Assembly (NCBI GenBank): GCA_964555355.1 | Contig: CAZKRY010000001.1 | Coordinates: 343,177 to 407,176 of the forward strand | Source: an uncultured Klebsiella sp. | Lineage (GTDB): Bacteria; Pseudomonadota; Gammaproteobacteria; Ga0077536 | Direction: 5' to 3' | Length of the DNA: 64,000 nt | In this document: positions 2,064 to 56,482 of the stretch, one piece after another | Layout: the number at the start of each line of letters is the position of its first letter | Position numbering within the stretch: position 1 is the first letter of the stretch | Position numbers and translations under genes: made by a program | Notes under the pieces: generated by a model | What the model was told of the DNA's origin: nothing | Database searches by the model: none | The model's input: only the letters and a program-made list of their open reading frames with translations

Positions 2064-2921
2064 ATGTCCACTGCGCGTTTTACCGGTACCGATACGTACG
2101 TTGCGACCGACGATCTCATGATGGCGGTGAACGCCGCTATTGTGCTGACCCGTCCGCTGCTAGTGAAAGGGGAGCCGGGAACCGGCAAAACGATGCTCGC
2201 GGAAGAAATCGCCCGCTCACTCGACAGGCCGCTGATCCAATGGCATATCAAGTCGACCACCAAAGCGGCCCGTGGACTATACGAATATGACGCCGTTGCC
2301 CGGTTACGCGACTCGCAGTTGGGCGATGACCGCGTCAAAGACATTCGCAACTACATTCAGAAGGGCAAGCTGTGGGAGGCTTTCGAATCCAACGCGCAGC
2401 CGGTCTTGCTAATTGATGAGATAGACAAAGCCGATATCGAGTTTCCGAACGACTTATTGCAAGAACTCGACCGCATGGAGTTCTACGTTTACGAAACCAA
2501 GGAAACGATCAGGGCCACACACCGGCCGATCATCATCATCACCAGTAACAATGAAAAAGAATTGCCGGATGCGTTTCTGCGTCGGTGTTTCTTTCACTAC
2601 ATTCGATTTCCGGACCAGGAAACGATGGAGCACATCGTGCATGTGCATTATCCGGATATCAAAAAGCGCTTGCTCGCCGAAGCTTTGCAATGCTTTTTTG
2701 AGTTGCGCGATCTGCCCGGTCTGAAGAAAAAACCGTCCACGTCTGAATTGCTGGACTGGATCAAACTCTTGGTCGCCGAAGACATTCCGCCGGAAGCCCT
2801 GCGCGAGAAGGATTCACGCAAAGCGATCCCCAAGTTGTACGGCGCGCTACTCAAGAACGAACAAGATATGCATCTCTTCGAGCGGCTGGTGTTCATGTCG
2901 CGAGGTCGCGGTGCTAACTGA
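2064..2921 (+). CDS. MoxR-family AAA+ ATPase (CoxD/NorQ-like)
   Basis: Walker A GEPGTGKT, Walker B LLIDEIDK, sensor arginines; ~285 aa, the size typical of single-domain MoxR ATPases. It overlaps the downstream VWA gene by 11 nt. Confidence 0.85.
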   Translation: MSTARFTGTDTYVATDDLMMAVNAAIVLTRPLLVKGEPGTGKTMLAEEIARSLDRPLIQWHIKSTTKAARGLYEYDAVARLRDSQLGDDRVKDIRNYIQKGKLWEAFESNAQPVLLIDEIDKADIEFPNDLLQELDRMEFYVYETKETIRATHRPIIIITSNNEKELPDAFLRRCFFHYIRFPDQETMEHIVHVHYPDIKKRLLAEALQCFFELRDLPGLKKKPSTSELLDWIKLLVAEDIPPEALREKDSRKAIPKLYGALLKNEQDMHLFERLVFMSRGRGAN

Positions 2922-4095
2922 GTTTTTTTATCGCCTGCGCAAGGTACAAATACCGGTCTCGCTGACCGAGTATTTGACGTTGATGCAGGCGCTGGAAGCG
3001 CGTATCGCGGGTTTCAGCATCGACGATTTTTACTATTTGGCGCGCGCCACGCTGGTGAAAGACGAGCGCTATTTTGATCGCTTCGATCAAGTCTTTGGCG
3101 ATTACATCCGAGGCCAAACCACGGCGTTTGAACAAATTCTGGGCGAGATCCCGCTCGAATGGCTGCGTAAGCAAAAAGAACTGACGCTGACCGACGAAGA
3201 GAAAAAACTGATCGAAAGTTTGGGCGGCTGGGACAAGTTGATGGAGACGCTGAAGCAGCGTCTGGAAGAACAGAAGAAGGCGCATCACGGCGGTAACAAG
3301 TGGATAGGGACCGGCGGGACCTCGCCATTCGGCGCGCATGGCTATAACCCGGAGGGCGTGCGCATCGGGCAGCCCACCGGGCGCCAAGGGAAAGCGGTCA
3401 AGGTGTGGGATAAACGCGAATACCAGAACCTGGATGACCAGGTCGAACTCGGTACACGCAACATCAAAGTGGCGCTGCGTAAATTGCGCCGCTTCGCGCG
3501 CGAAGGGGCGGAAGAAGAACTCGATTTGGACGATACGATCCGCTCAACCGCGCGCCGCGCCGGCCTCTTGGATATCAAGCTCGTGCCCGAGCGGCGCAAC
3601 ACCACCAAGGTTCTGCTGTTCTTGGATGTGGGCGGCTCGATGGACCCGCACGTCAAAGTTTGCGAGGAGTTGTTCTCCGCAACACGCGCCGAGTTCAAGC
3701 ACCTGGAGCATTTCTACTTCCACAATTTTGTCTACGAGACGGTGTGGCGGGACAATCGCATGCGTAACAACCAGCGGTATCCGACGCAATCCGTGCTGAA
3801 TAAATACAGTGCCGATCACAAGGTAGTCTTTGTCGGCGACGCGACGATGAGCCCGTATGAAATCATGGCGGTGGGCGGCAGTATCGAACACTGGAACGAA
3901 GAAGCCGGCGCGACTTGGATGGGGCGCTTGCTCGCGCTTTACCCTTACGCGGTGTGGTTAAACCCGCAGCCGGAAGATTATTGGAGCTACATCCCGTCCA
4001 TTGGTATCGTTAAACAATTATTGGCCGATCGAATGTTTCCGCTGACGATCGATGGGTTGGAACGCGCGATGAAGGCGCTTAAAAAGGCGCACTGA
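2911..4095 (+). CDS. VWA-domain protein (CoxE-like), partner of the MoxR ATPase
   Basis: C-terminal von Willebrand A domain with a MIDAS motif (LLFLDVGGSMD). The N-terminal region resembles the CoxE family. Translationally coupled to the upstream MoxR gene. Confidence 0.75.
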   Translation: MLTEFFYRLRKVQIPVSLTEYLTLMQALEARIAGFSIDDFYYLARATLVKDERYFDRFDQVFGDYIRGQTTAFEQILGEIPLEWLRKQKELTLTDEEKKLIESLGGWDKLMETLKQRLEEQKKAHHGGNKWIGTGGTSPFGAHGYNPEGVRIGQPTGRQGKAVKVWDKREYQNLDDQVELGTRNIKVALRKLRRFAREGAEEELDLDDTIRSTARRAGLLDIKLVPERRNTTKVLLFLDVGGSMDPHVKVCEELFSATRAEFKHLEHFYFHNFVYETVWRDNRMRNNQRYPTQSVLNKYSADHKVVFVGDATMSPYEIMAVGGSIEHWNEEAGATWMGRLLALYPYAVWLNPQPEDYWSYIPSIGIVKQLLADRMFPLTIDGLERAMKALKKAH

Positions 4096-5263: not shown

Positions 5264-5605
5264 GTGAAACGGGTCACGTTTCCTCACTCAAACGACGAAC
5301 CCGGTCGCACTGACAGCACAGTGAACGTCTATGTTTGCGAAGATGGAACGACGATTGCTGTATCTGTCATGAAACGCAATCCACGGAGACCAATAATGAA
5401 GGCCATTTCGACGATAGACCGGCGCATTGCGCGATTCTCCGGCTATCGGGACATGAACGGTGAGTTTGTGCCATTCACGATGTCCGACGAAGTTTTCAGC
5501 CGCGCGCGGAAACTCGGCGCGCGGGTTCTGTTGCGCCTGGAACTGTCCGAGAGTCGCGAGTTACAAGGTTTGTTTTATACCAACGATCGCAGCCTATCGC
5601 GCTAA
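5264..5605 (+). CDS. Small hypothetical protein (113 aa); start uncertain
   Basis: The ORF is present, but a REP-like hairpin lies immediately downstream. No motif recognised. Confidence 0.25.
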   Translation: MKRVTFPHSNDEPGRTDSTVNVYVCEDGTTIAVSVMKRNPRRPIMKAISTIDRRIARFSGYRDMNGEFVPFTMSDEVFSRARKLGARVLLRLELSESRELQGLFYTNDRSLSR

Positions 5606-5610
5606 CGAAC

Positions 5611-5665
5611 GAAACCTCTCCCACCGGGAGAGGTCGGCGCGTCAGCGCCGGGTGCGGGGCAGCCT
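5611..5665. repeat. REP-like palindromic element (single copy of the family seen at 36.2, 49.8, 52.1 and 55.4 kb)
   Basis: The cctctcccaccgggagagg hairpin followed by a ggcgcgtcagcgcc hairpin. The core is shared with the other copies. Confidence 0.6.
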
Positions 5666-11059: not shown

Positions 11060-12934
11060 ATGTGCGGAATTGCTGGGATTCTACACCTGGACGGCGCGCC
11101 CGCTTCGGTGACGTTGCTGCGCAGGATGACGGATTCAATCTCGCATCGTGGACCCGATGGCGAAGGTCATCACGTGGATGGGTCGCTCGCGCTAGGACAT
11201 CGACGCCTGTCAATCATCGACTTATCCGCTGCCGGCCATCAACCGATGGCGACACCCGATGGCCGCTACCTGCTTACCTACAACGGGGAGATCTACAACT
11301 TCCAGGAACTACGCACAGCGCTTGAAGCGCTGGGTCGCCAGTTCCGTTCGCGCACGGATTCCGAGGTGTTGCTAATGGGCTTCGCGGAGTGGGGGCTGCG
11401 CGTCCTGGACCGCCTGAACGGCATGTTTGCCTTTGCGATCTGGGACAAAGAAACCCGCACACTGACGCTTGCTCGTGACCGTTACGGTATCAAGCCGCTG
11501 TATTGGGCAAAGGTTGGCGCAACGGTTCTGTTCGGCTCCGAGATAAAGGCGATCCTTGCCCACGGTGCTATCAGGGCAAAACTCGATGGACCGGGTCTCC
11601 TCGAATACTTCACTTTTCAGAACTTTTTCACCGACCATACGCTATTCGACGGAGTGCGATTGTTGCCAGCCGGCACCTATTTGCAAGTCCGCGCCGACGT
11701 GCGCTGGACGCCATCGCCGGTGCGTTATTGGGACTATGATTTCAATGAACCCCTCGAGCGCATATCCGACGCGGAATACCTCGAAGAACTCGACCGGCTC
11801 TTCAAGCAGGCAGTGAACAGGCAACTAGTCAGTGACGTTGAACTCGGCAGTTACCTGTCCGGCGGTATGGATTCGGGTTCCATCACGGCGATCGCGGCGA
11901 GACAGATCCCTGATCTCAAGTCCTTCACGTGCGGTTTCGACCTACGCTCCGCGTCCGGCCTCGAACTGAACTTCGATGAGCGCCAAGCCGCCGAAGCGAT
12001 GTCCTATGAATTTAAGACCGAACATTATGAGATGGTGCTCAAAGCCGGGGACATGGAGCGTGTAATCCCGCGGCTGGCTTGGCACTTGGAGGAACCGCGC
12101 GTTGGCCAGTGCTACCCAAACTTCTATGCCGCGCAACTGGCAAGCAAGTTCGTCAAGGTAGTGCTATCCGGCGCGGGCGGTGACGAGTTGTTCGGTGGTT
12201 ATCCATGGCGCTACTACCGCGCCGTCGTCAACGACGATTTCGAACATTATATCGACAAGTATTATTCGTACTGGCAGCGCTTAGTCCCGAACAAGACCAT
12301 AAAGCAGCTGTTCGCGCCAATCTGGAGCGACGTCAAGGACGTTTGGACACGTGATATTTTTCGCGATGTCTTCGGTCATCACGCCGCTTCGCTCACGCGG
12401 CCGGAAGATTACGTCAACCACTCGTTGTACTTCGAGGCGAAAACTTTCCTGCACGGATTATTGGTGGTGGAAGACAAGATGAGTATGGCGCATTCGCTCG
12501 AAACGCGCGTGCCTTTCCTCGACAACGACCTCGTGGACTTCGCGACGCGCGTGCCGGTATCGCTGAAACTTGGCAACCTAGGCGAAGTGGTGAGACTCAA
12601 CGAGAACGAGCCTTCGCACAAGACGACCAAGTACTATCAGAAAACCAATGATGGAAAACTTTTATTGCGAAAGATGATGTCGCGGCATATCCCGGCGGAG
12701 ATCGCGGATCGTGAAAAGCAGGGGTTTTCCGCGCCCGATGCGAGTTGGTTCAAGGGAGAAAGCATCGACTACGTGAAACGCATGCTCTACCAGGGGCCGA
12801 CAAGCCTCTACAAATTCCTCGATCGCGGTACCGTTCATGGCTTAGTCGATGAGCACCTCGAAGGTCACGAGAATCGGCGGCTGTTGATCTGGTCGTTGCT
12901 GAATGTCGAGCAGTGGTGCAGGCATTACCTGTGA
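11060..12934 (+). CDS. Asparagine synthase (glutamine-hydrolysing)-family amidotransferase, WbpS/AsnB-like
   Basis: N-terminal MCGIAG (Ntn Cys2), GATase-2 domain, PP-loop SGGMDSGS. Confidence 0.85.
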   Translation: MCGIAGILHLDGAPASVTLLRRMTDSISHRGPDGEGHHVDGSLALGHRRLSIIDLSAAGHQPMATPDGRYLLTYNGEIYNFQELRTALEALGRQFRSRTDSEVLLMGFAEWGLRVLDRLNGMFAFAIWDKETRTLTLARDRYGIKPLYWAKVGATVLFGSEIKAILAHGAIRAKLDGPGLLEYFTFQNFFTDHTLFDGVRLLPAGTYLQVRADVRWTPSPVRYWDYDFNEPLERISDAEYLEELDRLFKQAVNRQLVSDVELGSYLSGGMDSGSITAIAARQIPDLKSFTCGFDLRSASGLELNFDERQAAEAMSYEFKTEHYEMVLKAGDMERVIPRLAWHLEEPRVGQCYPNFYAAQLASKFVKVVLSGAGGDELFGGYPWRYYRAVVNDDFEHYIDKYYSYWQRLVPNKTIKQLFAPIWSDVKDVWTRDIFRDVFGHHAASLTRPEDYVNHSLYFEAKTFLHGLLVVEDKMSMAHSLETRVPFLDNDLVDFATRVPVSLKLGNLGEVVRLNENEPSHKTTKYYQKTNDGKLLLRKMMSRHIPAEIADREKQGFSAPDASWFKGESIDYVKRMLYQGPTSLYKFLDRGTVHGLVDEHLEGHENRRLLIWSLLNVEQWCRHYL

Positions 12935-31859: not shown

Positions 31860-33037
31860 GTGCGCCGTGTAAGCGCCGCTTCGGCCTTGTGCTCGTCGGC
31901 GTTGGCGATTTAACGGGAGGAGGCGGCGCGGAACGTTACTTCGCGGACTTGTTTCTCACGCACCGTGCGCGAGCGGCTCATGCCAACGAAGAACTTTGGC
32001 TAATCACGGACGCCACAACCATTACCAGGCTCGAGGCGATTGGCCGTTGTGTGAAAGGTGAACGAGTAATCCAAGTCCCAGAGCGGCGCTTCGTCGCCGC
32101 GTTTGGCGAGACGCGCCGTTTGCGGCAAATCTCGACCAGCGGAGGCTTCGATCTTTTGCATCTAACGCAAGCGTTGCCACGCCATCTTCTCTGGCTATGG
32201 ACGCTGCCTCGTCTTAGATCTCGAATCACGATGAATCTCAATGATGACGAGATTGCGCTGCGCTTGGAATCCAGACCGTTACCGCGCGGGCGCGATTTGG
32301 AATGGCGAACCTATCGAGCGTATTTCCAATCGACAGCAATCGACGGATACATGGTTTGGTATCGTCGCTTAGCTGAAGTCTTGCCCCGCTTTCTCGCGAA
32401 GCGAACGTCTACCGTACGCGCCGCCCAGTACTGTTTCGTGGATGTGGAAAAATTCAAGCCTGCGGCCTTAAAACAAAAACAAATTGTGTTTGCCGGGCGA
32501 TTTGTGTCGGTTAAGCGGCCGGAGCTATTTGTCGCGGCCGTGGCAATCGCGCGCGCACGTATTCCCGAGTGCTTGGCAACTTGGAAATTTTCGATGTTTG
32601 GCAAAGGGCCGCTCGAGCGCGCGCTTCGCGAACAATGCCACGCGGCCGGATTGGACGATATTCTGACCATTGGCTATGCAGCCGACATGGGCTCGGTGCT
32701 TTCGACGAGCAATTGTTTCGTCTCTACGCAGGATCACGAGAACTTCACTTCTCTCGCGATGCTGGAGGCAATGGCTTGCGGTAACGCGATTATCGCAAGA
32801 GACGTCGGACAGACCGTGGATTTTGTGCGCCCGGGTAGAAATGGGTTGTTGGTAGATTCTGACAAGCCGGAAGCGCTTGCGGATGCGTTAGTTGAATACG
32901 TTTCGCATCCCGAATCTCACGCCGTGTATGCGAAGGAAAGCCGTCGAATTACCGAAGAAGAACATTGCGCCGAAAATGCGCTCTCGGAGTTTTTGGAATT
33001 TTGGACGACAGTCTCTTCTAGCCACGCGTATGGATGA
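31856..33037 (+). CDS. Glycosyltransferase family 4 (GT-B)
   Basis: The GGAERYFADL N-terminal motif and C-terminal EAMACGNAIIA are typical of GT4/GT1. Apparent TTG start overlapping the upstream stop. Confidence 0.75.
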   Translation: MSAPCKRRFGLVLVGVGDLTGGGGAERYFADLFLTHRARAAHANEELWLITDATTITRLEAIGRCVKGERVIQVPERRFVAAFGETRRLRQISTSGGFDLLHLTQALPRHLLWLWTLPRLRSRITMNLNDDEIALRLESRPLPRGRDLEWRTYRAYFQSTAIDGYMVWYRRLAEVLPRFLAKRTSTVRAAQYCFVDVEKFKPAALKQKQIVFAGRFVSVKRPELFVAAVAIARARIPECLATWKFSMFGKGPLERALREQCHAAGLDDILTIGYAADMGSVLSTSNCFVSTQDHENFTSLAMLEAMACGNAIIARDVGQTVDFVRPGRNGLLVDSDKPEALADALVEYVSHPESHAVYAKESRRITEEEHCAENALSEFLEFWTTVSSSHAYG

Positions 33038-34199
33038 AAAACCACTAGCGCGGCGGATCCGTATTACGCATCTGATTCCGAGTCTTGAAATTGGCGGCGC
33101 CGAACAGTCGCTAGTCAAGCTGGTTACGGGCCTCGACCCGCAAGTATTCGAACAGCGCGTTATCTCGATGATCGGGGGCGGCGCGCTGGCGAGTAAGCTG
33201 GAGGCAGTTGGGATCCCGCTCGAGTCACTCGGCATGCGACGCGGACAACCGTCACCGCGTGCGTACTGGCGGCTTCGTCGGTCTCTTCGTGGCGCTCCTC
33301 CGGACGTGCTCCAGACGTGGCTATACCACGCGGACTTGCTTGGGACGATTGCCGTCGGGCGCGCGACCCGGCCCAGTCTCGTGTGGAACGTACGGTGTTC
33401 AAACATGGATCTGACGCAATATCGATCACTAACGAGATTGGTGTTGTTTATTTTGTCTCGATGGGCTTTTCGGCCTTTAGCGGTTTTGGTTAATAGTGAA
33501 GCGGGTCGGCGTTACCATGCCGCGCTTGGTTATGCTCCACGACGTTGGGAGGTCATCCCTAACGGGTTTGATACCGAGCGATTCCGTCCCGACTCGGTGG
33601 CGCGAGACGCCATTCGTCGAGAGCTAGCTATTCCGCCGCAAGCACCCATCGTCGGCTTGGTTGCCCGTCATGATCCCGCGAAGGATCACCGCACATTTTT
33701 AGAGGCCGCCCGGCTGGTTCACACGGCTTGTCCCTTAACACGGTTTATTCTAATAGGCAGCGGCATCCCTGCGTTGCGAGAAGCGGTGTCCGCGCAGGGG
33801 CTTGCCTCGCATGTGCATTTGCTTGATGCACGCAGCGATATCGAACGAGTCATGGCAGCGTTTGACGTAGGTTGTCTTGCTTCCGCATGGGGCGAGGGGT
33901 TTCCGAACGTGCTCGGTGAAATGATGGCCTGTGGCGTACCTTGCGTAACAACTCGCGTGGGTGATGCGGCAACGATTATCGGCACGACAGGAGAAGTCGT
34001 TTCGCCCGGCGACGCCACCGCGCTCGCCACCGCGTTGATCGGGCTTTGTTCAGTAACTCCGGCGGCGCGCGCGCGGTTAGGCGCGGCGGCGCGCGCGCGA
34101 ATTCAGGCGGATTATTCGCTGGCAGTCGTCTTGGCGCGCTACGCGGATTTTTATCATTCGTTGGCGGATGTCGCGGCCCTCGCGCAAGTCAATTCTTAG
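33030..34199 (+). CDS. Glycosyltransferase family 4 (GT-B)
   Basis: The start is set at ATG 33030, overlapping the upstream gene by 8 nt (ATGGATGA). IRITHLIPSLEIGGAEQ N-terminal motif, C-terminal GEMMACGVPCV. Confidence 0.8.
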   Translation: MDEKPLARRIRITHLIPSLEIGGAEQSLVKLVTGLDPQVFEQRVISMIGGGALASKLEAVGIPLESLGMRRGQPSPRAYWRLRRSLRGAPPDVLQTWLYHADLLGTIAVGRATRPSLVWNVRCSNMDLTQYRSLTRLVLFILSRWAFRPLAVLVNSEAGRRYHAALGYAPRRWEVIPNGFDTERFRPDSVARDAIRRELAIPPQAPIVGLVARHDPAKDHRTFLEAARLVHTACPLTRFILIGSGIPALREAVSAQGLASHVHLLDARSDIERVMAAFDVGCLASAWGEGFPNVLGEMMACGVPCVTTRVGDAATIIGTTGEVVSPGDATALATALIGLCSVTPAARARLGAAARARIQADYSLAVVLARYADFYHSLADVAALAQVNS

Positions 34200-34238: not shown

Positions 34239-36194
34239 ATGTGTGGAATTGTCGGCGCGCTTATCGGTAACGCGTTCGATCGATCGAACTTACGTTCGGC
34301 GGTGGACGCAATGAACACGCGTCTCCATCACCGCGGCCCCGACGCCGGCGACGTGTGGGTTGACGCCTCCGCTGGCCTTGCGCTCGGCCACCGACGCTTG
34401 TCGATTCTCGATCTCTCGCCCGCAGGCGCGCAGCCGATGCACTCCAAGTGTGGTCGCTATGTCATCGTCTTTAACGGCGAGATCTATAACTTCGCGTCTT
34501 TGCGCGACGAGCTTGCCGCGCGCGGAGAAATCTTTGTCGGGCATTCGGATACGGAAGTCTTGCTCGCGGGTTTTGTCGCTTGGGGTATCGAACAGACACT
34601 AAAACGCGCCAACGGCATGTTTGCGATTGCACTCTGGGACAAACGCGAACGTGAATTAACGCTGGCGCGCGACAGATTAGGCGAAAAGCCGCTGTATTAC
34701 GGAATGCATCAGGGATCGTTGTTGTTCGCCTCGGAACTCAAAGCACTGCATGCCTGGCCGGATTTCAGACCAGAGATCGATCGCGATGCGCTTACGCTCT
34801 TTCTCCGACATAACTACATTCCAGAGCCGTTTTGTGTTTATCGGGGCTTACGCAAACTGCCGCCTGCGCATTTCTTGACCGTTGGTGTCGATTCGCTCCG
34901 AGAGTTACCCGCGCCCCGACCGTATTGGTCGTTGCAAGATGCGATCACGCGTGGGCGGCAAACACCCTTCTCCGGCACACGCGAAGAAGGCGTGGAGTTA
35001 TTGGATACAACACTGCGCGAATCGGTGCGGCTGCGCATGGTGGCCGATGTCCCGCTCGGCGCGTTTCTCTCGGGCGGGATCGATTCCTCCACCGTGGTCG
35101 CCCTGATGCAGGCACAGAGCACACGCCCAATCCGCACGTTTTCGATTGGCTTTACCGTGCCTGAGTATGACGAAGCGCCCTATGCGCGCGCGGTCGCCAA
35201 ACACTTGGGCACGGACCACACGGAGCTTTACGTCAATCCGGATGAGACGCGCGCCGTCATCCCGCGCCTCCCGGCGATGTATGACGAACCCTTTGCGGAC
35301 TCATCGCAAATTCCAACCTTCTTGGTGTCCTCGCTCGCCCGCCAACACGTCACGGTCGCAATGTCAGGTGACGCCGGAGACGAACTTTTTGCTGGCTACA
35401 CACGTTATTCCGTGGCACTCGACCTTTGGCGCCGGCAACAACGTTTGCCATTGGTTGCCCGGCGTGCGCTGGCGCGCGTGTTGACCGGCATCGCTCCGCG
35501 GCAGTGGGATAGTTTGTTCAAGGTACTTGGCCCAGTACTGCCGGCGCGTCTACGTCAACCGATGCCCGGTGACAAATTGCATAAGCTCGCAGGCTTGCTC
35601 GCAATCAATGAATCGCTCGCGATGTATCGCGATTTGATTTCCCTATGGAAAGAGCCGGAGCGAGTGGTACTCGGAGGCCGCGAACCACCGAGTGTCATGT
35701 CGATTGCAGCTAACTTGCCTAACGAACTCGAGTTTGTCGAACGCATGATGGCGCTGGATACCTTGCACTATCTGCCGGGCGACATTTTGACCAAAGTCGA
35801 TCGCGCGAGCATGGCAGTAAGTCTGGAAGCGCGCGTGCCGTTACTCGATACGGAAGTCGTCGAACTCGCTTGGCGCTTACCGCAGTCATTTAAGGTGCAT
35901 CAAGGCGTGGGCAAATGGGTGCTGCGCGAGGTGCTCGCGCGCTACGTGCCGCGTAAGCTTTTTGAACGGCCCAAAATGGGTTTCGGGATCCCGATTGACG
36001 CCTGGCTGCGCGGCCCTTTACGCGAATGGGCGGAAGATCTGTTGAACGAATCGCGCTTAGCGCAAGCCGGTTTTTTCGACGCTAAGGCAGTACGGCAGGT
36101 ATGGCAGGCTCATCTATCCGGCGGCCAGAATCTGCAATATTTGTTGTGGACGATTTTGACTTTCGAGGCGTGGCGGGCCGCTTATCGGAGCTAA
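34239..36194 (+). CDS. Asparagine synthase (glutamine-hydrolysing)-family amidotransferase, second paralog
   Basis: MCGIVG N-terminus and PP-loop SGGIDSST. Paralogous to 11060..12934. Confidence 0.85.
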   Translation: MCGIVGALIGNAFDRSNLRSAVDAMNTRLHHRGPDAGDVWVDASAGLALGHRRLSILDLSPAGAQPMHSKCGRYVIVFNGEIYNFASLRDELAARGEIFVGHSDTEVLLAGFVAWGIEQTLKRANGMFAIALWDKRERELTLARDRLGEKPLYYGMHQGSLLFASELKALHAWPDFRPEIDRDALTLFLRHNYIPEPFCVYRGLRKLPPAHFLTVGVDSLRELPAPRPYWSLQDAITRGRQTPFSGTREEGVELLDTTLRESVRLRMVADVPLGAFLSGGIDSSTVVALMQAQSTRPIRTFSIGFTVPEYDEAPYARAVAKHLGTDHTELYVNPDETRAVIPRLPAMYDEPFADSSQIPTFLVSSLARQHVTVAMSGDAGDELFAGYTRYSVALDLWRRQQRLPLVARRALARVLTGIAPRQWDSLFKVLGPVLPARLRQPMPGDKLHKLAGLLAINESLAMYRDLISLWKEPERVVLGGREPPSVMSIAANLPNELEFVERMMALDTLHYLPGDILTKVDRASMAVSLEARVPLLDTEVVELAWRLPQSFKVHQGVGKWVLREVLARYVPRKLFERPKMGFGIPIDAWLRGPLREWAEDLLNESRLAQAGFFDAKAVRQVWQAHLSGGQNLQYLLWTILTFEAWRAAYRS

Positions 36195-36204
36195 GCAAGT
36201 AAAC

Positions 36205-36681
36205 CCTTCCGCGTGCGGGAGAGGGTAGGGTGAGGGTCTTCATACAACGCCACTCGACACGCTGCCCCTCACCCGGCGCTACGCGCCGGCCTCTCCCGGT
36301 GGGGAGAGGCGATTGGAATGACGCTCCTGCTGCGCGTGAGTAGCAAAAACCCTCTCCCGCATGCGGGAGGGCAGGGTGAGGGTCTTCATACAACGCCACT
36401 CGACACGCTGCCCCTCACCCGGCGCTACGCGCCGGCCTCTCCCGGTGGGGAGAGGCGATTGGAATGACGCTCCTGCTGCGCGTGAGTAGCAAAAACCCTC
36501 TCCCGCATGCGGGAGGGCAGGGTGAGGGTCTTCATACAACGCCACTCGACACGCTGCCCCTCACCCGGCGCTATGCGCCGGCCTCTCCCGGAGGGAGAGG
36601 CGATTCGATGACACTCCTGCTGCGCGGAAGTGGCAAAATAAAACCCTCTCCCGCATGCGGGAGAGGGCAGGGTGAGGGTCT
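36205..36681. repeat. Tandem array (about 3.3 copies) of a 146-bp composite REP/BIME-like palindromic element
   Basis: The catacaacgc landmark recurs at 36241, 36387 and 36533, a period of 146 bp. Each unit contains the hairpins ccctctcccgc..gcgggaggg, ccctcaccc..gggtgaggg and cctctcccggtggggagagg. The array fills the gap between two convergent genes. Confidence 0.85.
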
Positions 36682-36690
36682 TAAGGCCAC

Positions 36691-37506
36691 TCAACTCCGC
36701 AAATGCACTTCCCGCTGCGGCAGGATCTGAATACCACCGGCCACCAGCGCCGAATACACCGTAGCGTTTACCGCATGACGCGTTTCGAAATAGCGTGCAC
36801 TCGGTGCCCAATAACGAAACGCAAGTGCGATTGACGTTTCGCCAAATCCCTCTATCCCGATTTGCGGCGCGGGCTCCACGGCCACTTCCGTCACACTGCG
36901 CAGTGCCTCTGCAATCAACGCGACCGCGCGTCTCGGATCGGCTTGATACGCAACCCCAATCCGGCCTTCGACAATACGGTTCGCGAAAGAATTGCGATGG
37001 ATTTCACCCGCGATTTGTTTGTTCGGAATAACGATGATTTCGCCGTCTTCGGCCTTGAGTTTGGTGGTCGCGAGCGTGATGTCGGTCACCACGCCGGCGC
37101 AACCTTGCACTTCGATCGTGTCGCCGACTTTGAACGTGCGCGACAAAATCAATGATAACCCCGCGCCGTAGTTGGAAACCGGCCCTTGCAATGCCATGCC
37201 GGCGCCGAGCGCCACGCCACCCAGCGCCGCGAGCAACGGCGCGATACTGATCCCAAGCTTGGCGAGTGCGACGATCAAAAACATTACCATCACGATCAGG
37301 CGCACCGTGCTCGCGATGAATTGGCGGAGCGTGATATCGACATCGCGCCGTTCCTGCAAGCGCAATACCGCATTGCCGACACTGCGCGCCACAAACAAGC
37401 CCACGCCGAAAATGATCAAAGCGCCAATCACTTGGAACGAATAGCGGACAAAAAAATCGATCACGTTTTGCGTGACGCGTGCCAAGGTGTCGATTTCTAG
37501 CGGCAT
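36691..37506 (-). CDS. Small-conductance mechanosensitive channel (MscS family)
   Basis: Three N-terminal transmembrane helices, then the conserved pore/beta-domain region (LGGVALGAGMALQGPVSNYGAGLSL...VGD). Confidence 0.8.
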   Translation of the reverse strand: MPLEIDTLARVTQNVIDFFVRYSFQVIGALIIFGVGLFVARSVGNAVLRLQERRDVDITLRQFIASTVRLIVMVMFLIVALAKLGISIAPLLAALGGVALGAGMALQGPVSNYGAGLSLILSRTFKVGDTIEVQGCAGVVTDITLATTKLKAEDGEIIVIPNKQIAGEIHRNSFANRIVEGRIGVAYQADPRRAVALIAEALRSVTEVAVEPAPQIGIEGFGETSIALAFRYWAPSARYFETRHAVNATVYSALVAGGIQILPQREVHLRS

Positions 37507-49775: not shown

Positions 49776-49868
49776 GCCCCTCACCCGGCGCTGCGCACCG
49801 GCCTCTCCCGGTGGGAGAGGCGAATAAGTGAACCCTCTCCCGCTGGCGGGAGAGGGTAGGGTGAGGGT
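49776..49868. repeat. REP-like composite palindromic element
   Basis: ccctcacccggcgctgcgcaccggcctctcccggtgggagagg followed by ccctctcccgctggcgggagagggtagggtgaggg. Same family as the 36.2-kb array. Confidence 0.8.
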
Positions 49869-50856: not shown

Positions 50857-52038
50857 ATGGAACCATTACGTGGGATCCGCGTCATTGATGTCACGACTAA
50901 CGCATCCGGTCCGATGGCCGCCGGGATGTTGGCCGATCAAGGGGCTGACGTCATCCGCATTGAAACCCTGGGTAGCGGCGATCCTTCACGGCATGTCGGT
51001 GGCACCCGTGGCGGCGTCTCGTCGTATACGGCCTATCTTAATCGCAATAAGCGCTCCATCGCGGCTGACTTAAAAAACGCGGCCTTAAAACCGTTGCTCT
51101 ACAAGCTTATCCAAACTGCCGATGTGTTTATCCAAAACTCGCGACCGGGTGCGTTGGAGCGTGCGGGCTACGGCTTCGCCGATTTGCACAAAATCAACCC
51201 GAAGCTTATCTATGTGTCGATTTCCGGATTCGGTGCCACCGGTCCCGCCGCGGGGCAGCGGGTGTACGACCCGGTGATTCAATGTGTAGCGGGTTTTGCA
51301 ACCGCGCAAGGCGCGGGCGGCGAACCGGCACTGGTCAAGACCATCGCAAGCGACAAGGTGGCGGCGCTTACTGCCGCGCAGGCCGTCTCGAGCGCGTTGC
51401 TTGCGCGCGAACGCGGGCTTATTGGTGGTCATCACGTTGAACTCTCGATGCTTGATGCGAGCCTCGCCTTCCTGTGGCCGGATATTTATTGGAACCATGG
51501 GTTTGTCGGCGAGGAAGGCGTTACCCGTAAACCGCTGATTGCGGATTTCTATCGGTTGCTGAAAACCGCGAACGGTTTCATCACGACGATTATTGTTGGC
51601 GATGGCGAGTTCGCCGGCGCGTGTCGCGCGTTCGGCACCGAACACATGCTGAGCGATCCGCGCTTTAAAACGCTTACCGATCGTTTCGGCAATTACGCCG
51701 ATATGCATGCCGCCTTCCAAGCGAAAGCGGCAACCATGCAAGCGGATGATTTGATCGCGCGCTTGATGCGCGAAGATGTACCTTGCGCCAAGGTCAACGC
51801 GCTTGATGATGTATTCACCGATCCGCGCGTCACGCATCGCCAAAGCATTGTTGAATACGACGACCCGCGCGCTGGCCGCATGCGCGCGGCACGTGCACCC
51901 GCTATTTTCGACGGCGAACCCTGCCCGATCCGCCGGCCTTCGCCAGCGCTCGGCGAACACACGGCGGAAGTGCTGCAGTCGGTAGGTTGTAGCACGGAAG
52001 AGTTGGCCTCACTGCGTAAATCGGGTGCGATTAATTGA
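50857..52038 (+). CDS. Family III CoA-transferase (CaiB/BaiF family)
   Basis: N-terminal LRGIRVIDVTTNASGPMAAGMLADQGADVIRIE signature. The catalytic Asp region is conserved. Confidence 0.85.
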   Translation: MEPLRGIRVIDVTTNASGPMAAGMLADQGADVIRIETLGSGDPSRHVGGTRGGVSSYTAYLNRNKRSIAADLKNAALKPLLYKLIQTADVFIQNSRPGALERAGYGFADLHKINPKLIYVSISGFGATGPAAGQRVYDPVIQCVAGFATAQGAGGEPALVKTIASDKVAALTAAQAVSSALLARERGLIGGHHVELSMLDASLAFLWPDIYWNHGFVGEEGVTRKPLIADFYRLLKTANGFITTIIVGDGEFAGACRAFGTEHMLSDPRFKTLTDRFGNYADMHAAFQAKAATMQADDLIARLMREDVPCAKVNALDDVFTDPRVTHRQSIVEYDDPRAGRMRAARAPAIFDGEPCPIRRPSPALGEHTAEVLQSVGCSTEELASLRKSGAIN

Positions 52039-52052
52039 CAAGATCGTTTACT

Positions 52053-52209
52053 CCCTCTCCCGCGACGCGAGAGGGCAGGGGTGAGGGTCTTCGTGCGGAG
52101 CCGGTCGAAGCGCTGCCCCTCACCCGGCGCTGCGCGCCGGCCTCTCCCGGTGGGAGAGGTTTTTTCCCTTCTCCCTCTCCCACTTCGCAGGAGAGGGGAG
52201 GGGGTGAGG
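52053..52209. repeat. REP-like composite palindromic element (two adjacent modules)
   Basis: ccctctcccgcgacgcgagagggcaggggtgaggg ... ccctcacccggcgctgcgcgccggcctctcccggtgggagagg ... ccctctcccacttcgcaggagaggggagggggtgagg. Confidence 0.8.
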
Positions 52210-52252
52210 ACCAAGCTTTTTGGAAAGTAGAAATAGATTTAAAGGAGACCCC

Positions 52253-53341
52253 ATGCATCTCGGATATTTCATGATGCCGTTGCATCATGCGGACAGCGAT
52301 TACCATCAAACGTTGAGCGACGACGTCGAAGCCATCGTGCTGGCCGACGAACTAGGTTTCACGGAAGCGTGGGTTGGCGAACACTATTCAGCAACGGTCG
52401 AGCAGATCACCTCGCCCCTACTCTTTCACGCCAATCTCATCGCGCGCACCAAGCGTATTAAATTTGCAACCGGCGTAATCTGTCTACCGCAGTATCATCC
52501 GGCCGTCATTGCCGGGCAGGCCGCGATGTTCGATCACTTGAGCAATGGGCGCTTCATCATGGGCATTGGCCCCGGCGGCTTGCCGTCGGATTTCGCGTTG
52601 TTTGGCGTCATGAACAAAGATCGCCAAAAAATGGCCGAAGAATCCATCGATCAAATTCTGACCATGTGGTCGACTTCGCCGCCGTACAACCTCCGAGGCG
52701 AGCATTGGACCATCGACATGACCGCGTGGACGCATCATGACATCAAGATGGGTTACATCCCGAAGCCGTTGCAACAACCGCATCCGCCGATCGCGGTCTC
52801 GGCCGTCAGCCCGAACTCCGGCTCGTTGAAATACGCAGGCAGCAAAGGCTTTATTCCGGTATCCGCAAACTTCATCGCCGAATGGAACTTAAAGACCCAT
52901 TGGCCGACATACGCCGCCGGCGCGCAAGCTGCCGGTCACACACCGAAGAGCGCCGACTGGCATGTGGCGCGCAGCATTTTTGTCGCGGACACGGATGCAG
53001 AAGCCGCCGAGTTCGTTGCCCAACCCGGCGCGGCTTACGGCTATTACTACGAATATCTGTTCAAGATTTTCGATCGCACTAACTTTCGCGGACCTTTCGT
53101 GCCGAATCAGGGTGACGATCCGATGAGCTTGACGCCGACGGCGCTCCGCGAAGCTTGTGTTATTCACGGCAGTCCGGAGACAGTCGCGCGTCAGATTTTA
53201 GGATTGCGTGAGCGTATCGGTGATTTCGGCACCTTGCTTTACGCCGCGCACGATTGGGTCGATAAGCCGGCGATGAAACGTTCGATGCAATTGATGGCGC
53301 AGGAAGTCATGCCGCGCGTCAATCGCGCGTTAGCCGCTTAA
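52253..53341 (+). CDS. LLM-class (luciferase-like) flavin-dependent monooxygenase/oxidoreductase
   Basis: The start is set at ATG 52253 with an AAAGGAGA ribosome-binding site 5 nt upstream. TIM-barrel LLM signature regions (FTEAWVGEHY; ICLPQYHP). Confidence 0.7.
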   Translation: MHLGYFMMPLHHADSDYHQTLSDDVEAIVLADELGFTEAWVGEHYSATVEQITSPLLFHANLIARTKRIKFATGVICLPQYHPAVIAGQAAMFDHLSNGRFIMGIGPGGLPSDFALFGVMNKDRQKMAEESIDQILTMWSTSPPYNLRGEHWTIDMTAWTHHDIKMGYIPKPLQQPHPPIAVSAVSPNSGSLKYAGSKGFIPVSANFIAEWNLKTHWPTYAAGAQAAGHTPKSADWHVARSIFVADTDAEAAEFVAQPGAAYGYYYEYLFKIFDRTNFRGPFVPNQGDDPMSLTPTALREACVIHGSPETVARQILGLRERIGDFGTLLYAAHDWVDKPAMKRSMQLMAQEVMPRVNRALAA

Positions 53342-54388: not shown

Positions 54389-55350
54389 CGAGGATCATTG
54401 GTTTGGGCGCAAGACTTTCGATTGATCTAAACGACTGCCGCAAATTCGCCGTCGGCGTCAAACGCCCGGAAGATGTGGTAGTCAGCCGCGACGGCACGGT
54501 GTGGATTTCGGATCAGGCAAGTGCCTGCGCGCGGGTGAGCCCGGATGGTACCTTCACCCGCATTGGCCGCGCGGGCGGGGCGCCAAACGGAATAAATCTC
54601 GATCTCGAGGATCGTGTGTTGATTGCGAATTTCGGCGGACCGGAAGATGGGCACGGTCCGTTGCAACGGCTCGATCCGAGAACCGGCACGGTGACTACGT
54701 TGTGTGATTCGATCAACGGTCGCCCGCTATTCGGCGCGAACTACCCGCTGGTGGATGGCCGAGGCCGCGTGTGGTGCTCGCATTCCACGTTCGGCCCGTT
54801 GGATGCCGCATGGGCCGGCCAGCACGACGGATCGATTTTCCGCGTTGACGGAGGTGCGGTTACCGTCCTTGCGGACGGCATTGAATTTGCAAACGGCATC
54901 GCTTTCGATGCCGAAGATAAATATCTCTACGTCTGCCAAACCACGGCATGCAATGTCGTTCGCTTTCCAATCAACGCCGATGGCACGCTAGGCCGCGCGG
55001 AGCGCTATGGGCCAAAGCTCGGCTTCACGAATGACGAAGTGCAACACCTACGTCCGCTCACACTCGAACAGCGCAGCCAGCTTGGACCTACCGACGGCTG
55101 CGGTTTTGACGCCGAGGGGAATTTGTGGGTGACCTTGGTGCTTGCCAACAAGGTTGTCGCCATCACGCCCAGTGGAGAGGTAGTTACGGTGCTCTCCGAT
55201 CCGACGGGTAAACTGATGCGCAATCCCACCAATGTCACGTGGGGTGGGCGCGACATGCGGGATTTGTATATCGGCAGCGTAACTACCGATTACGTCGTGC
55301 ATGCGCGCAGCCCAATTCCGGGCATGCGGATGTGGCATCAACGGCATTGA
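54355..55350 (+). CDS. SMP-30/gluconolactonase/LRE-family six-bladed beta-propeller protein (lactonase-like)
   Basis: DAEGNLWVT (DxEGxLW) and NG/DG propeller motifs. The ORF-track start overlaps the upstream gene by 34 nt, so the true start is probably slightly downstream. Confidence 0.6.
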   Translation: MRTQECLRTFITRIIGLGARLSIDLNDCRKFAVGVKRPEDVVVSRDGTVWISDQASACARVSPDGTFTRIGRAGGAPNGINLDLEDRVLIANFGGPEDGHGPLQRLDPRTGTVTTLCDSINGRPLFGANYPLVDGRGRVWCSHSTFGPLDAAWAGQHDGSIFRVDGGAVTVLADGIEFANGIAFDAEDKYLYVCQTTACNVVRFPINADGTLGRAERYGPKLGFTNDEVQHLRPLTLEQRSQLGPTDGCGFDAEGNLWVTLVLANKVVAITPSGEVVTVLSDPTGKLMRNPTNVTWGGRDMRDLYIGSVTTDYVVHARSPIPGMRMWHQRH

Positions 55351-55373
55351 GTGCCATGAACGTAGCGAGGTTG

Positions 55374-55502
55374 CCCCTCACCCGGCGCGCTGCGCCGGCC
55401 TCTCCCGGTGGGAGAGGCGAATTCACTCAGTTTTCCCGTGAAGTGGAAGATATAAAAGCGCTCTCCCTCTCCCGCGAAGTGGGAGAGGGTAGGGGTGAGG
55501 GT
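55374..55502. repeat. REP-like composite palindromic element
   Basis: ccctcacccggcgcgctgcgccggcctctcccggtgggagagg ... ctctccctctcccgcgaagtgggagagggtaggggtgaggg. Confidence 0.8.
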
Positions 55503-55540
55503 CTTCTCTCAATGCATCGTTCCTTCAAAAGAGTTTCATC

Positions 55541-56482
55541 ATGAGCCATGACCGCCAATTCACCCCGCGCGACGATCACTTTCATTTCGACGAAATGGGC
55601 GACGATTGGTGGGCGACGGAAACGTCATGGTTTTCTTTTCATCATCCGGAACGCAAACTCGGCGGCTGGTTCTACACCATGGCGCGGCCGAACATCGGCA
55701 CCATCGCCGGGGGCGCATGGGTATGGGACGACCGCGCTTATCTGCCGTGGGAAGTACTGTATTCAGCCAATTACTCCGCGCAGGAATTACTGCCCAACAC
55801 CGATCTTGCGGACTGCAAACTACCGAACGGCGTTTCGATCAAGGTGCTCGAACCGTGCACACGCTATGCGCTCGGTTACGACGATGGTGATCGGTTTAAA
55901 GCCGATCTCATTTTCCACGCAGTCATGCCGCCCGAACCATTGACGGCGGTGGGCTCGACATTTGGCAGCGCGCATCACTTCGATCAATTCGGACGTGTGA
56001 CCGGCAACCTCGTCTTACATGGTGAGGTCATCGCGCTAGACTGCATTGGCATGCGCGATCGAACCTGGGGACGGCGACCGGAAGACCGGCCGCGCCAAGC
56101 GGCGTATGTCACCGGCGCGGCCAACGCCGACACCGGGTTTCTCGCGGTTACGCAGGGCAAAGTGCCGCGAGACGAAGTGGCCTATGGATTTCTGCGGCGC
56201 GACGGCCGCAACGTACCGCTCGCGAGCGGCGAGCGGCAGGTTGAACGCGATCCCAAAGAAGGTTGGATCACACGCATCACTTTGCTTGCGCGCGACACGC
56301 AAGGCCGCGAATTGCGCGCGGAAGGCGTGCCGGTCAGCCGCATTATTTTGAACCGGCACACCTTCATCGATATCAATAGTTTGATTCGCTGGGAGCACGA
56401 TGGCCTAGTTGCATGGGGCGAAGATCAGGACATGTGGCCGGTGCATCGTTGGGCGCGCCGCCAGCGCGAGGCACGCGGCTAG
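55541..56482 (+). CDS. Hypothetical protein (313 aa) encoded immediately upstream of an acyl-CoA ligase
   Basis: No recognisable motif. The N-terminus is His/Trp/Asp-rich. The stop lies 2 nt before the ligase start. Confidence 0.4.
   Translation: MSHDRQFTPRDDHFHFDEMGDDWWATETSWFSFHHPERKLGGWFYTMARPNIGTIAGGAWVWDDRAYLPWEVLYSANYSAQELLPNTDLADCKLPNGVSIKVLEPCTRYALGYDDGDRFKADLIFHAVMPPEPLTAVGSTFGSAHHFDQFGRVTGNLVLHGEVIALDCIGMRDRTWGRRPEDRPRQAAYVTGAANADTGFLAVTQGKVPRDEVAYGFLRRDGRNVPLASGERQVERDPKEGWITRITLLARDTQGRELRAEGVPVSRIILNRHTFIDINSLIRWEHDGLVAWGEDQDMWPVHRWARRQREARG

Follow-up and report, generated by a model that had tools for sequence, protein, structure and literature searches.

A tandem array of BoxC/PIT/TM_ECO triplex motifs between convergent asnB-like and mscS genes, and mirror-register covariation of hairpin and tail across the family

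Introduction

Intergenic repeats first described as BoxC, later as the PIT element, and then as the “intrastrand triplex motif” TM_ECO occur in 23 copies in Escherichia coli K-12 and in 3610 copies in 262 proteobacterial genomes, always intergenically (Holder et al. 2015, PMC4666352). At five sites in K-12 two motifs form an inverted pair, in every case one of type A with one of type B (PMC4666352). The isolated E. coli strand forms a stable triplex in vitro, PIT elements showed neither promoter nor terminator activity in E. coli, and TM_ECO loci are unusually variable between strains (PMC4666352). Here we describe a seven-module array of such elements in a 64,000-nucleotide stretch of DNA from an uncultured Klebsiella sp. 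(the window; contig CAZKRY010000001.1), where it fills the gap between convergent genes for an asparagine synthase (asnB) and an MscS-type mechanosensitive channel (mscS). The array is probably a local amplification of a heterotypic tail-to-tail BoxC/PIT/TM_ECO pair, whose modules would fold on single-stranded DNA (ssDNA) as a hairpin with the tail as third strand, termination of mscS transcription being secondary.

BoxC/PIT elements have been on record for ~30 years without an assigned function, and whether DNA triplexes have a natural role in cells is debated. The elements were reportedly also treated by Bachellier et al. in the 1990s and by Hoyne and Maher in 2000. REPs are lineage specific and coevolve with their RAYT, the E. 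coli RAYT is associated with REP and not with BoxC, and local tandem multimers (BIME-2) are known among REP/BIME elements. In Enterobacter sp. 638, palindromic repeats of the form CCCTCTCCC-XX(X)-GGGAGAGGG, the same hairpin as in the modules described here, occur in 100 copies, often double or triple at gene 3′ ends; unlike our modules, they were described as a hairpin only, without a third block or composite-unit arrays (PMC2869309). In DNA, GCGNAGC mini-hairpins have extraordinary stability, far greater than in RNA; the motif occurs at ssDNA initiation sites, both in G4-type phages and in RSF1010 (ssiA), and in promoters for the N4 virion RNA polymerase (Hirao and Kimoto, PMC13037366).

Structure of the array

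The original prediction, made from the letters of the window, placed a 146-bp unit ~3.3 times between convergent asnB-like and MscS genes, and the repeat analysis bears this out. Tandem Repeats Finder reports a repeat at 36201-36682 with a period of 146, 93% matches, 3% indels, a score of 809, and 3.3 copies, the last being the number as assembled across a 482-bp tandem repeat. A repeat search of the window places the unit starts at 36201, 36347, and 36493, a spacing of 146, and the array fills a 496-bp convergent gap between the asparagine synthase end at 36194 and the MscS end at 36691. The gap and its flanks comprise the following (position, strand, feature, and basis).

34239-36194, plus strand: asnB, asparagine synthase (glutamine-hydrolysing), flanking gene; Pfam Asn_synthase (6e-122) and GATase_7
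36201-36682, no single strand: tandem array, [A+ / 29-nt linker L1 / B- / ~40-nt linker L2] x3 plus a final A+; Tandem Repeats Finder, repeat families, unit alignment
36204-36236, plus strand: module A1, triplex motif with short loop, 5′ arm degenerate (CCCTTCCGC); unit alignment
36237-36265, plus strand: linker L1, 29 nt between two tails, 12 C and 4 G on the plus strand; repeat family, unit alignment
36266-36311, minus strand: module B1, CCTCTCCC-CACC-GGGAGAGG, mini-hairpin CCGGCGC-GTA-GCGCCGG, tail GGGTGAGGG; covariance-model match of 66.7 bits
36350-36382, plus strand: module A2, 3′ arm with 2 nt deleted (GGGAGGG), same sequence as A3; unit alignment
36412-36457, minus strand: module B2, identical to B1; unit alignment, covariance model
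36496-36528, plus strand: module A3, same 2-nt deletion as A2; unit alignment
36558-36602, minus strand: module B3, mini-hairpin loop ATA, hairpin loop TCC; unit alignment, covariance model (63.2 bits)
36644-36678, plus strand: module A4, sole intact A module of the array, CCCTCTCCC-GCATGC-GGGAGAGGG-CA-GGGTGAGGG; motif scan, DNA fold
36691-37506, minus strand: mscS, MscS-type mechanosensitive channel, flanking gene; Pfam MS_channel_2nd, MS_channel_3rd, and MS_channel_1st_1, homologues

Each 146-bp unit consists of two related modules in opposite orientation, and seven modules, A on the plus strand (A+) and B on the minus strand (B-), alternate along the array. All three blocks of a module lie on the same strand: first a C-rich arm, then the Watson-Crick partner of that arm, GGGAGAGG(G), and last a G-rich tail, GGGTGAGGG, that mirrors the partner. 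Module A has the sequence given for A4; module B has the same three blocks and reads CCTCTCCC-CACC-GGGAGAGG-[CCGGCGC-GTA-GCGCCGG]-GTGAGGGG on the minus strand. The second loop is 2 to 3 nt in module A and a self-contained mini-hairpin in module B, and with DNA parameters B1 forms a hairpin of 8 bp and a mini-hairpin of 7 bp and leaves its tail free. Linker L1 recurs at 36383-36411 and 36529-36557, with a related copy at 52088-52116. The three hairpins per unit that had been claimed are real: folding of the gap gave z = -12.7 (plus strand) and -9.9 (minus strand) relative to shuffled sequence.

Identity of the modules

A full-text literature search with GGGTGAGGG led to the report on TM_ECO (PMC4666352), and the modules agree with its published pattern and its 23 E. 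coli sequences. The same 9-mers as in the E. coli triplex-forming sequence are present in the window modules. A4 and the A modules at 49.8 and 55.5 kb match the three-block pattern with a second loop of 2 to 3 nt, while the B modules are versions with a long second loop. Under the triad code G·G-C, A·A-T, and T·A-T, with blocks 2 and 3 antiparallel, the consensus modules are fully compatible. Judged by sequence, the module is the BoxC/PIT/TM_ECO intrastrand triplex motif of Holder et al. (2015, PMC4666352).

The resemblance extends to detail. Module A fits CCCTCNCCC N3-6 GGGNGAGGG N3 GGGNGAGGG, save for a 2-nt second loop in some copies; the described elements and ours are both intergenic and both form inverted pairs of two different types; and the spacer between tails is 28 to 29 nt in the E. 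coli K-12 pair and 29 nt in the array. The differences lie in module B, whose second loop is a self-pairing mini-hairpin of 13 to 20 nt, outside the 1- to 6-nt loops searched by ITxF; in the amplification of the pair to seven modules; in the host, a gammaproteobacterium with 58% G+C; and in a range far past the 262 proteobacterial genomes reported. No description of the mini-hairpin variant was found in the literature searched. We regard module B, the array's length, and the very wide phyletic range as variants of something already known.

The array had been called REP/BIME-like, and the general part of that description holds: it is an extragenic, palindrome-rich, noncoding repeat of alternating orientation that follows gene 3′ ends and seeds spurious open reading frames (ORFs). 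The family, however, is BoxC/PIT/TM_ECO. A true BIME-2 cluster, in which REP palindromes were mobilised by a cognate RAYT (a Y1 HUH transposase), would suit the alternation of modules between two linker types, the dominance of inverted doublets (as for REPINs), and the location after gene 3′ ends with depletion in divergent gaps, but it is quite unlikely on other grounds. First, no array module has the GTAG/CGTC tag at its hairpin foot, GTAG being confined to loops and linkers (36225, 36340, and 36486; minus strand, 36282 and 36428), and the IHF consensus WATCAANNNNTTR (the L-motif) is absent from the array, where alternation and two linker types are present. Second, phmmer found no match to E. 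coli RayT in 12,356 ORFs of the window and ~245 loci, a weak negative that takes in 64 kb of the source genome. Third, the core sequence is common to distant phyla, unlike that of species-specific REPs. The modules also differ from REPs in sequence and in the third, mirror-repeat block that is integral to the triplex-motif unit. The architecture is REP/BIME- or REPIN-like, while on the features tested the modules fall outside that family. Rfam 15 gave no match at the gathering score for the window and 18 carrier loci, and at E ≤ 10 the region gave only chance-level matches.

Covariation of hairpin, tail, and second loop

In the covariance-model alignment, a compensated change of C-G to T-A in the hairpin (arm CTTCTCCC, block 2 GGGAGAAG) is accompanied in six of six modules by the tail GGATGAGGG in place of GGGTGAGGG. 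The substituted tail base mirrors the substituted purine, block 2 position k corresponding to tail position 10-k, and the new triad is A·A-T. This mirror register is that of an antiparallel purine-motif triplex. A wider fuzzy search, with a perfect hairpin as the sole requirement, recovered further variant classes that follow the same mirror rule.

AGGAGAGG with GGGTGAGGT
AGGGGAGG with GGGTGGGGT
GGGGGAGG with GGGTGGGGG
GGGAGGGG with GGGGTGGG
GGGAGAGA with AAGTGAGGG

In 43 of 64 variant modules the own tail fits better than the consensus tail; in 16 it fits equally well and in 5 worse. Compatible triads number 472, compared with 422 ± 3.9 in permutations. For a test unbiased with respect to the tail, IMG/VR was scanned for seven single-pair hairpin variants with the tail unspecified, while b7A was taken from the loci already collected; the IMG/VR scans for the motif or for hairpin variants each returned at least 120 loci. 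Tails within 36 nt of the hairpin were counted among the matches listed, with the proviso that for b4G, b5A, and b6G the direct and mirror registers are hard to tell apart, their patterns nearly coinciding.

b1A: own mirror-coded tail 72, consensus tail 3, direct-register tail 3
b4G: own mirror-coded tail 82, consensus tail 16, direct-register tail 12
b5A: own mirror-coded tail 32, consensus tail 2, direct-register tail 31
b6G: own mirror-coded tail 64, consensus tail 3, direct-register tail 32
b7A (loci already collected): own mirror-coded tail 45, consensus tail 3, direct-register tail 1

The off-diagonal tail background was 0 to 2%, except for cross-talk between b4G and b6G arising from register ambiguity in G runs. 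Own-code tails came from 29 to 61 different contigs per class, with many different loops, among the matches listed, so that the mirror rule is seen in five variant classes and hundreds of contigs. The hairpin variants b2A, b3A, and b8A were mostly tail-less; they were taken as unrelated hairpins and were uninformative.

A C in block 2 (C-G inversion in the purine strand) goes with a T at the mirrored position of the tail (locus L195, offsets 711 and 5681, minus strand; locus L020, 2875 and 2898). T·C-G is a known compromise triad.

Duplication makes only direct or inverted repeats, so a mirror relation that has been renewed in several variant classes points to selection on the contact between block 2 and tail under Hoogsteen-type rules. 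The cross-genome covariation is comparative evidence for selection on a putative ssDNA triplex fold. Covariation or compensation is unmentioned by Holder et al. (PMC4666352), and no other paper on it was found in the literature searched. The module shares with H-DNA and mirror-repeat tracts the mirror symmetry of a purine tract and the G·G-C, A·A-T, T·A-T code. It differs from them in that all three blocks are on one strand, the fold requiring ssDNA rather than supercoil-driven extrusion, and in being a dispersed repeat family.

The second loop of module B is a further structured part, almost always a hairpin though of many different sequences. A Watson-Crick stem of ≥5 bp is present in 72% of 141 second loops, compared with 4% in shuffles, and is built from 81 different stem arms; C-GNA-G triloops account for 70 of the 141 and GNRA loops for 6. 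The base pair beside the conserved 8-bp hairpin covaries (A-T 71, C-G 59, G-C 5). A covariance model of module B was built, and its best 150 matches were aligned, with the following results; the alignment was fitted to the model and so leans towards structure.

Cells forming a standard pair: 98.8%, compared with 85.1% in shuffles
Cells changed on both sides: 245, compared with 68 in shuffles
Covariation score: 0.307, compared with 0.089 in shuffles, 0 of 500 reaching it
Covariation score with the partner slid by 1 to 3 columns: at most 0.041

The insert resembles GCGNAGC mini-hairpin DNA in that it is usually a C-GNA-G triloop on a G+C stem, and differs in its placement between two triplex strands.

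Two double-helical or four-stranded readings of the same 9-mers have to be weighed here. Blocks 2 and 3 of module A are near-direct repeats 11 to 12 bp apart, about one helical turn, as would suit an array of double-stranded binding sites whose 9-mers were read as direct or inverted repeats by a regulator or nucleoid protein. We consider this very unlikely: the spacing in module B varies from ~13 to 24 nt, its insert is nearly always self-pairing, which matters only for an extruded strand, and the tail covaries in the mirror and not in the direct register (b1A, 72 versus 3; b7A, 45 versus 1). A self-closing insert of variable length argues against a double-stranded binding site and for a structure of one extruded strand. 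Module A also contains four G3 tracts with short loops (GGG AGA GGG YA GGG TGA GGG), as in a G-quadruplex. In about half of the B modules, however, a T follows GGGAGAGG and pairs with an A before the 5′ arm (A-T 71, C-G 59), which leaves only GG as the second tract, and both the C-rich arm and its covariation would lack a role, making a quadruplex as the conserved feature highly improbable. On the covariation and loop data, both candidates were rejected. Simple tail-to-tail Watson-Crick pairing was rejected as well, the tails in pairs of consensus and b7A modules not being fully complementary.

Distribution and gene context in other genomes

An exact scan for module B in one genome per species, with the three blocks fixed and 14 to 20 nt of second loop left free, gave at least 120 loci. 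The matches listed are mostly from Alphaproteobacteria, with others from Beta- and Gammaproteobacteria, Planctomycetota, Acidobacteriota, Methylomirabilota, Myxococcota, Elusimicrobiota, and Omnitrophica, which extends the family from enterobacteria to many phyla. The 120 loci listed hold 246 modules in ~150 clusters, among them the following types.

Tail-to-tail pairs: 58
Head-to-head pairs: 21
Single modules: 30
Hairpins tailed on both sides: 11

Tail-to-tail pairs in these loci have a modal gap of 25 to 30 nt, and in none of 54 was the second loop identical in both halves; the pairs are thus heterotypic, as in E. coli and in the window. The claim that tandem multimers of the full unit are less common is supported, since among the ~150 clusters in the loci listed only one had more than two modules. 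This cluster, in a Rhodanobacteraceae metagenome-assembled genome (MAG; L115, DAISJF010000014.1), reads B+ / 44 nt / A- twice at 2874-3185, with a period of ~172 bp and a degenerate last A module, and was unreported by Tandem Repeats Finder at score 50. The seven-module array is uncommon yet no new kind of object. The lineage-specific A-L1-B junction was found in metagenomes in one unrelated contig only.

Gaps bearing the element were co-directional in 71 cases, convergent in 30, and divergent in 6, against a baseline of 280, 82, and 82 (chi-square ~15, p ~5e-4; crude gene calls), and the elements avoid promoter-only gaps. In E. coli K-12, the BoxC pair in the ygfF-gcvP gap (NC_000913.3, 3045989-3046092) is tail to tail with a 28- to 29-nt spacer; of 5426 complete E. 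coli genomes, 3026 have both this pair and ygfF. In O157:H7 and others, ygfF and the pair are both absent, bglA abuts gcvP, and the indel boundary lies ~30 nt from the pair.

BLAST of one array unit gave no match in 50,697 GenBank phage records, and among plasmids it matched only megaplasmids of Azospirillum, Xanthomonas, and Pararhizobium; abundance in IMG/VR was therefore not taken as phage carriage, and the “viral” contigs of IMG/VR may include host DNA or prophage flanks.

Double-tailed modules, with a central hairpin and a mini-hairpin and tail on each side (CCCTCACCC ... GGGTGAGGG), number 11 to 13 in the 120 loci listed (e.g., L018, 2022-2098; L049, 1017-1091; L058, 3251-3331). In Bradyrhizobium-like loci (L004, L019, L045, L056, L073, and others), a conserved palindrome, TTACGGNCTATCGATAGACCGTAA, lies just 3′ of the tail and fills the pair spacer; in these alphaproteobacterial loci it looks like a lineage-specific extra module.

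Origin and significance of the array

In the unit alignment, units 1 and 2 do not differ between the A tail and the end of L2, whereas unit 3 has ~9 private differences; the 5′ arm of A1 is damaged, A2 equals A3 with a shared 2-nt deletion, and A4 alone is intact. Such mosaic identity requires two or more events, duplications or conversions, whose breakpoints differed, and points to repeated unequal recombination as the probable cause. An A-B-A cluster like that at 52053-52210 is the likely precursor, and its direct A-module repeats would have allowed expansion, more than once, by unequal recombination or replication slippage. The elements themselves may be tolerated, self-propagating extragenic DNA, REPIN-like, that settles after gene 3′ ends.

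In two related metagenome contigs, with an MscS 77% identical to that of the window, the assembly breaks at this spot: L121 has a 100-N scaffold gap (5468-5567) in the MscS|AsnB convergent gap, and the contig of L122 ends at 5344-5352, 8 nt after MscS. That both breaks fall at the same intergenic position suggests repeats there too. The element is absent from the orthologous locus in L123 and L124. The exact proteins of the two flanking genes had no entry on record; the nearest named relatives are gammaproteobacterial MAGs, at 71% identity of MscS.

On its own the array is of modest interest, an ordinary case of amplification within a known repeat family. A broader proposal, which we put forward tentatively, is that the module is kept by selection for its ssDNA triplex fold and read by a putative widespread activity, for example a structure-specific transposase, nuclease, or primase or a factor for replication restart, with the tail-to-tail pair of unlike modules as the propagated unit. 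If so, the mirror-register covariation would be the first comparative-genomic evidence, in the literature searched, for a natural DNA triplex functioning in cells, and replication stalling or recombination at the fold would produce arrays like this one as by-products. A tail that tracks the hairpin at the mirror position, together with a self-closing insert of DNA type, makes in vivo selection of the triplex fold testable.

Several observations speak against the main reading, an amplified pair whose modules fold as ssDNA triplexes. The triplex was undetected in double-stranded DNA and by in vivo dimethyl sulfate (DMS) footprinting in E. coli (PMC4666352). Three of the four A modules of the array are degenerate, which shows that the array is under no strong selection for the fold. 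Each variant class possibly represents one lineage by descent, in which case independent covariation events are fewer than copies, and most variant data come from IMG/VR contigs without a known host. No trans-acting enzyme was found in the RayT search of the window and ~245 loci, so that self-propagation is something we infer. The gene calls behind the gap-orientation counts are crude, and the comparison with empty sites in E. coli showed a larger indel, of the pair and ygfF together, without a readable insertion boundary.

Transcription at the locus

The original prediction assigned such arrays a role as terminators or mRNA-stabilising structures. One site fits this.

36633-36668, minus strand: intrinsic-terminator-like site for mscS, the A4 hairpin (11 pairs, 8 of them G-C) followed by TTTATTTT, 23 nt past the mscS stop; terminator scan

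The hairpin of this site runs from 36668 to 36643 on the minus strand, and weaker sites lie at 36515 and 36369. The intact A4 with its T-run probably terminates mscS transcription, and the structured block may insulate the converging genes. The assigned role does not carry over to the element as such: the T-run TTTATTTT is part of the linker and not of the module, the intrinsic-terminator signature is no general property of modules, and PIT elements had no terminator activity in E. coli (PMC4666352). No terminator signal of this kind was found on the plus strand after asnB. The C-rich, G-poor 29-nt linkers (12 C, 4 G) would be compatible with Rho loading.

An RNA-level function, as terminators, attenuators, or protective stem-loops at 3′ ends, with the array as a reinforced bidirectional stop, would make use of strongly structured transcripts on both strands, of the A4 hairpin and TTTATTTT right after mscS, of a B- module at 52141-52159 followed by TTTTTT, and of the enrichment of convergent gaps, and a termination role was presumed in the Enterobacter sp. 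638 genome paper (PMC2869309). As an account of what is conserved it is nonetheless unlikely. T-runs are absent from most copies, promoter activity is lacking in E. coli PIT elements along with terminator activity, and purine-motif triplexes are not formed in RNA (PMC4666352). Mirror-register covariation of the tail has no Watson-Crick meaning, the loops belong to the GNA triloops typical of DNA and not to the GNRA or UNCG classes, and no Rfam family matched in the window and 18 carrier loci. We retain the ssDNA hairpin with its tail as third strand as the preferred reading of the module and treat termination of mscS as a local addition.

Other copies in the window and spurious ORFs

The window contains 15 modules at five intergenic sites in 64 kb. 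Copies had been placed at 5.6, 49.8, 52.1, and 55.4 kb, and modules are located at each, every site being intergenic.

5613-5658, plus strand: solitary B module with one tail mismatch (GGGTGCGGG); motif scan, covariance model
49778-49867, no single strand: B- / A+ head-to-head pair, 26 nt past the stop of a dienelactone hydrolase gene (minus strand); motif scan
52053-52210, no single strand: A+ B- A+ cluster, third module degenerate, L1-type 29-nt linker; motif scan, alignment
55375-55501, no single strand: B- / A+ pair between co-directional genes; motif scan

Four of the five sites start 7 to 26 nt past a stop codon, the module at 55.4 kb, by its narrower definition, starting 24 nt past one; with the coordinates listed, the copies outside the array are 7 to 53 nt from the preceding stop. 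The 9-mer GGGTGAGGG occurs 13 times in the window, compared with a mean of 0.17 in shuffled sequence, in which the two composite motifs had zero matches. At 52141-52165, a B- module followed by TTTTTT on the plus strand forms a terminator-like hairpin with a U-run after a CoA-transferase gene (50857-52038), and the next gene is co-directional with that gene.

The repeats give rise to phantom ORFs, as had been stated.

36082-36811, minus strand: overlapping spurious ORFs 36082-36399, 36279-36545, and 36425-36811, reading through the repeats; ORF list

Further phantom ORFs lie at 51693-52214, 52031-52309, and 55239-55544. The peptide quoted, PLPTGRGRRVAPGEGQ, is present in ORFs 36082-36399 and 36279-36545. 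That these ORFs, of 88 to 128 amino acids and found on both strands, encode real repeat-containing proteins is scarcely credible: they overlap one another and the 3′ end of mscS, their periodicity is that of the DNA repeat, frame-shifting indels separate the repeat copies, and the two that were scanned, 36082-36399 and 36425-36811, had no Pfam match. Coding ORFs were rejected as the conserved feature on the overlaps, the indels, and the two Pfam scans. The array serves as a warning for gene callers, through its spurious ORFs, and for assemblers, since the contigs of relatives break there.

Three minor observations concern asnB and the gene before it. The ORFs at 11060-12934 and 34239-36194 share a 33-nt stretch with 88% identity, the former being a probable paralogue of the asparagine synthase. 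The gene immediately upstream of the asparagine synthase gene encodes a group-1 glycosyltransferase (32892-34199), and inside the 3′ end of this glycosyltransferase gene, at 34060-34109, is a G+C-rich 24-nt tandem repeat of two copies with 88% match and the consensus CGGCGGCGCGCGCGCGATTAGGCG.

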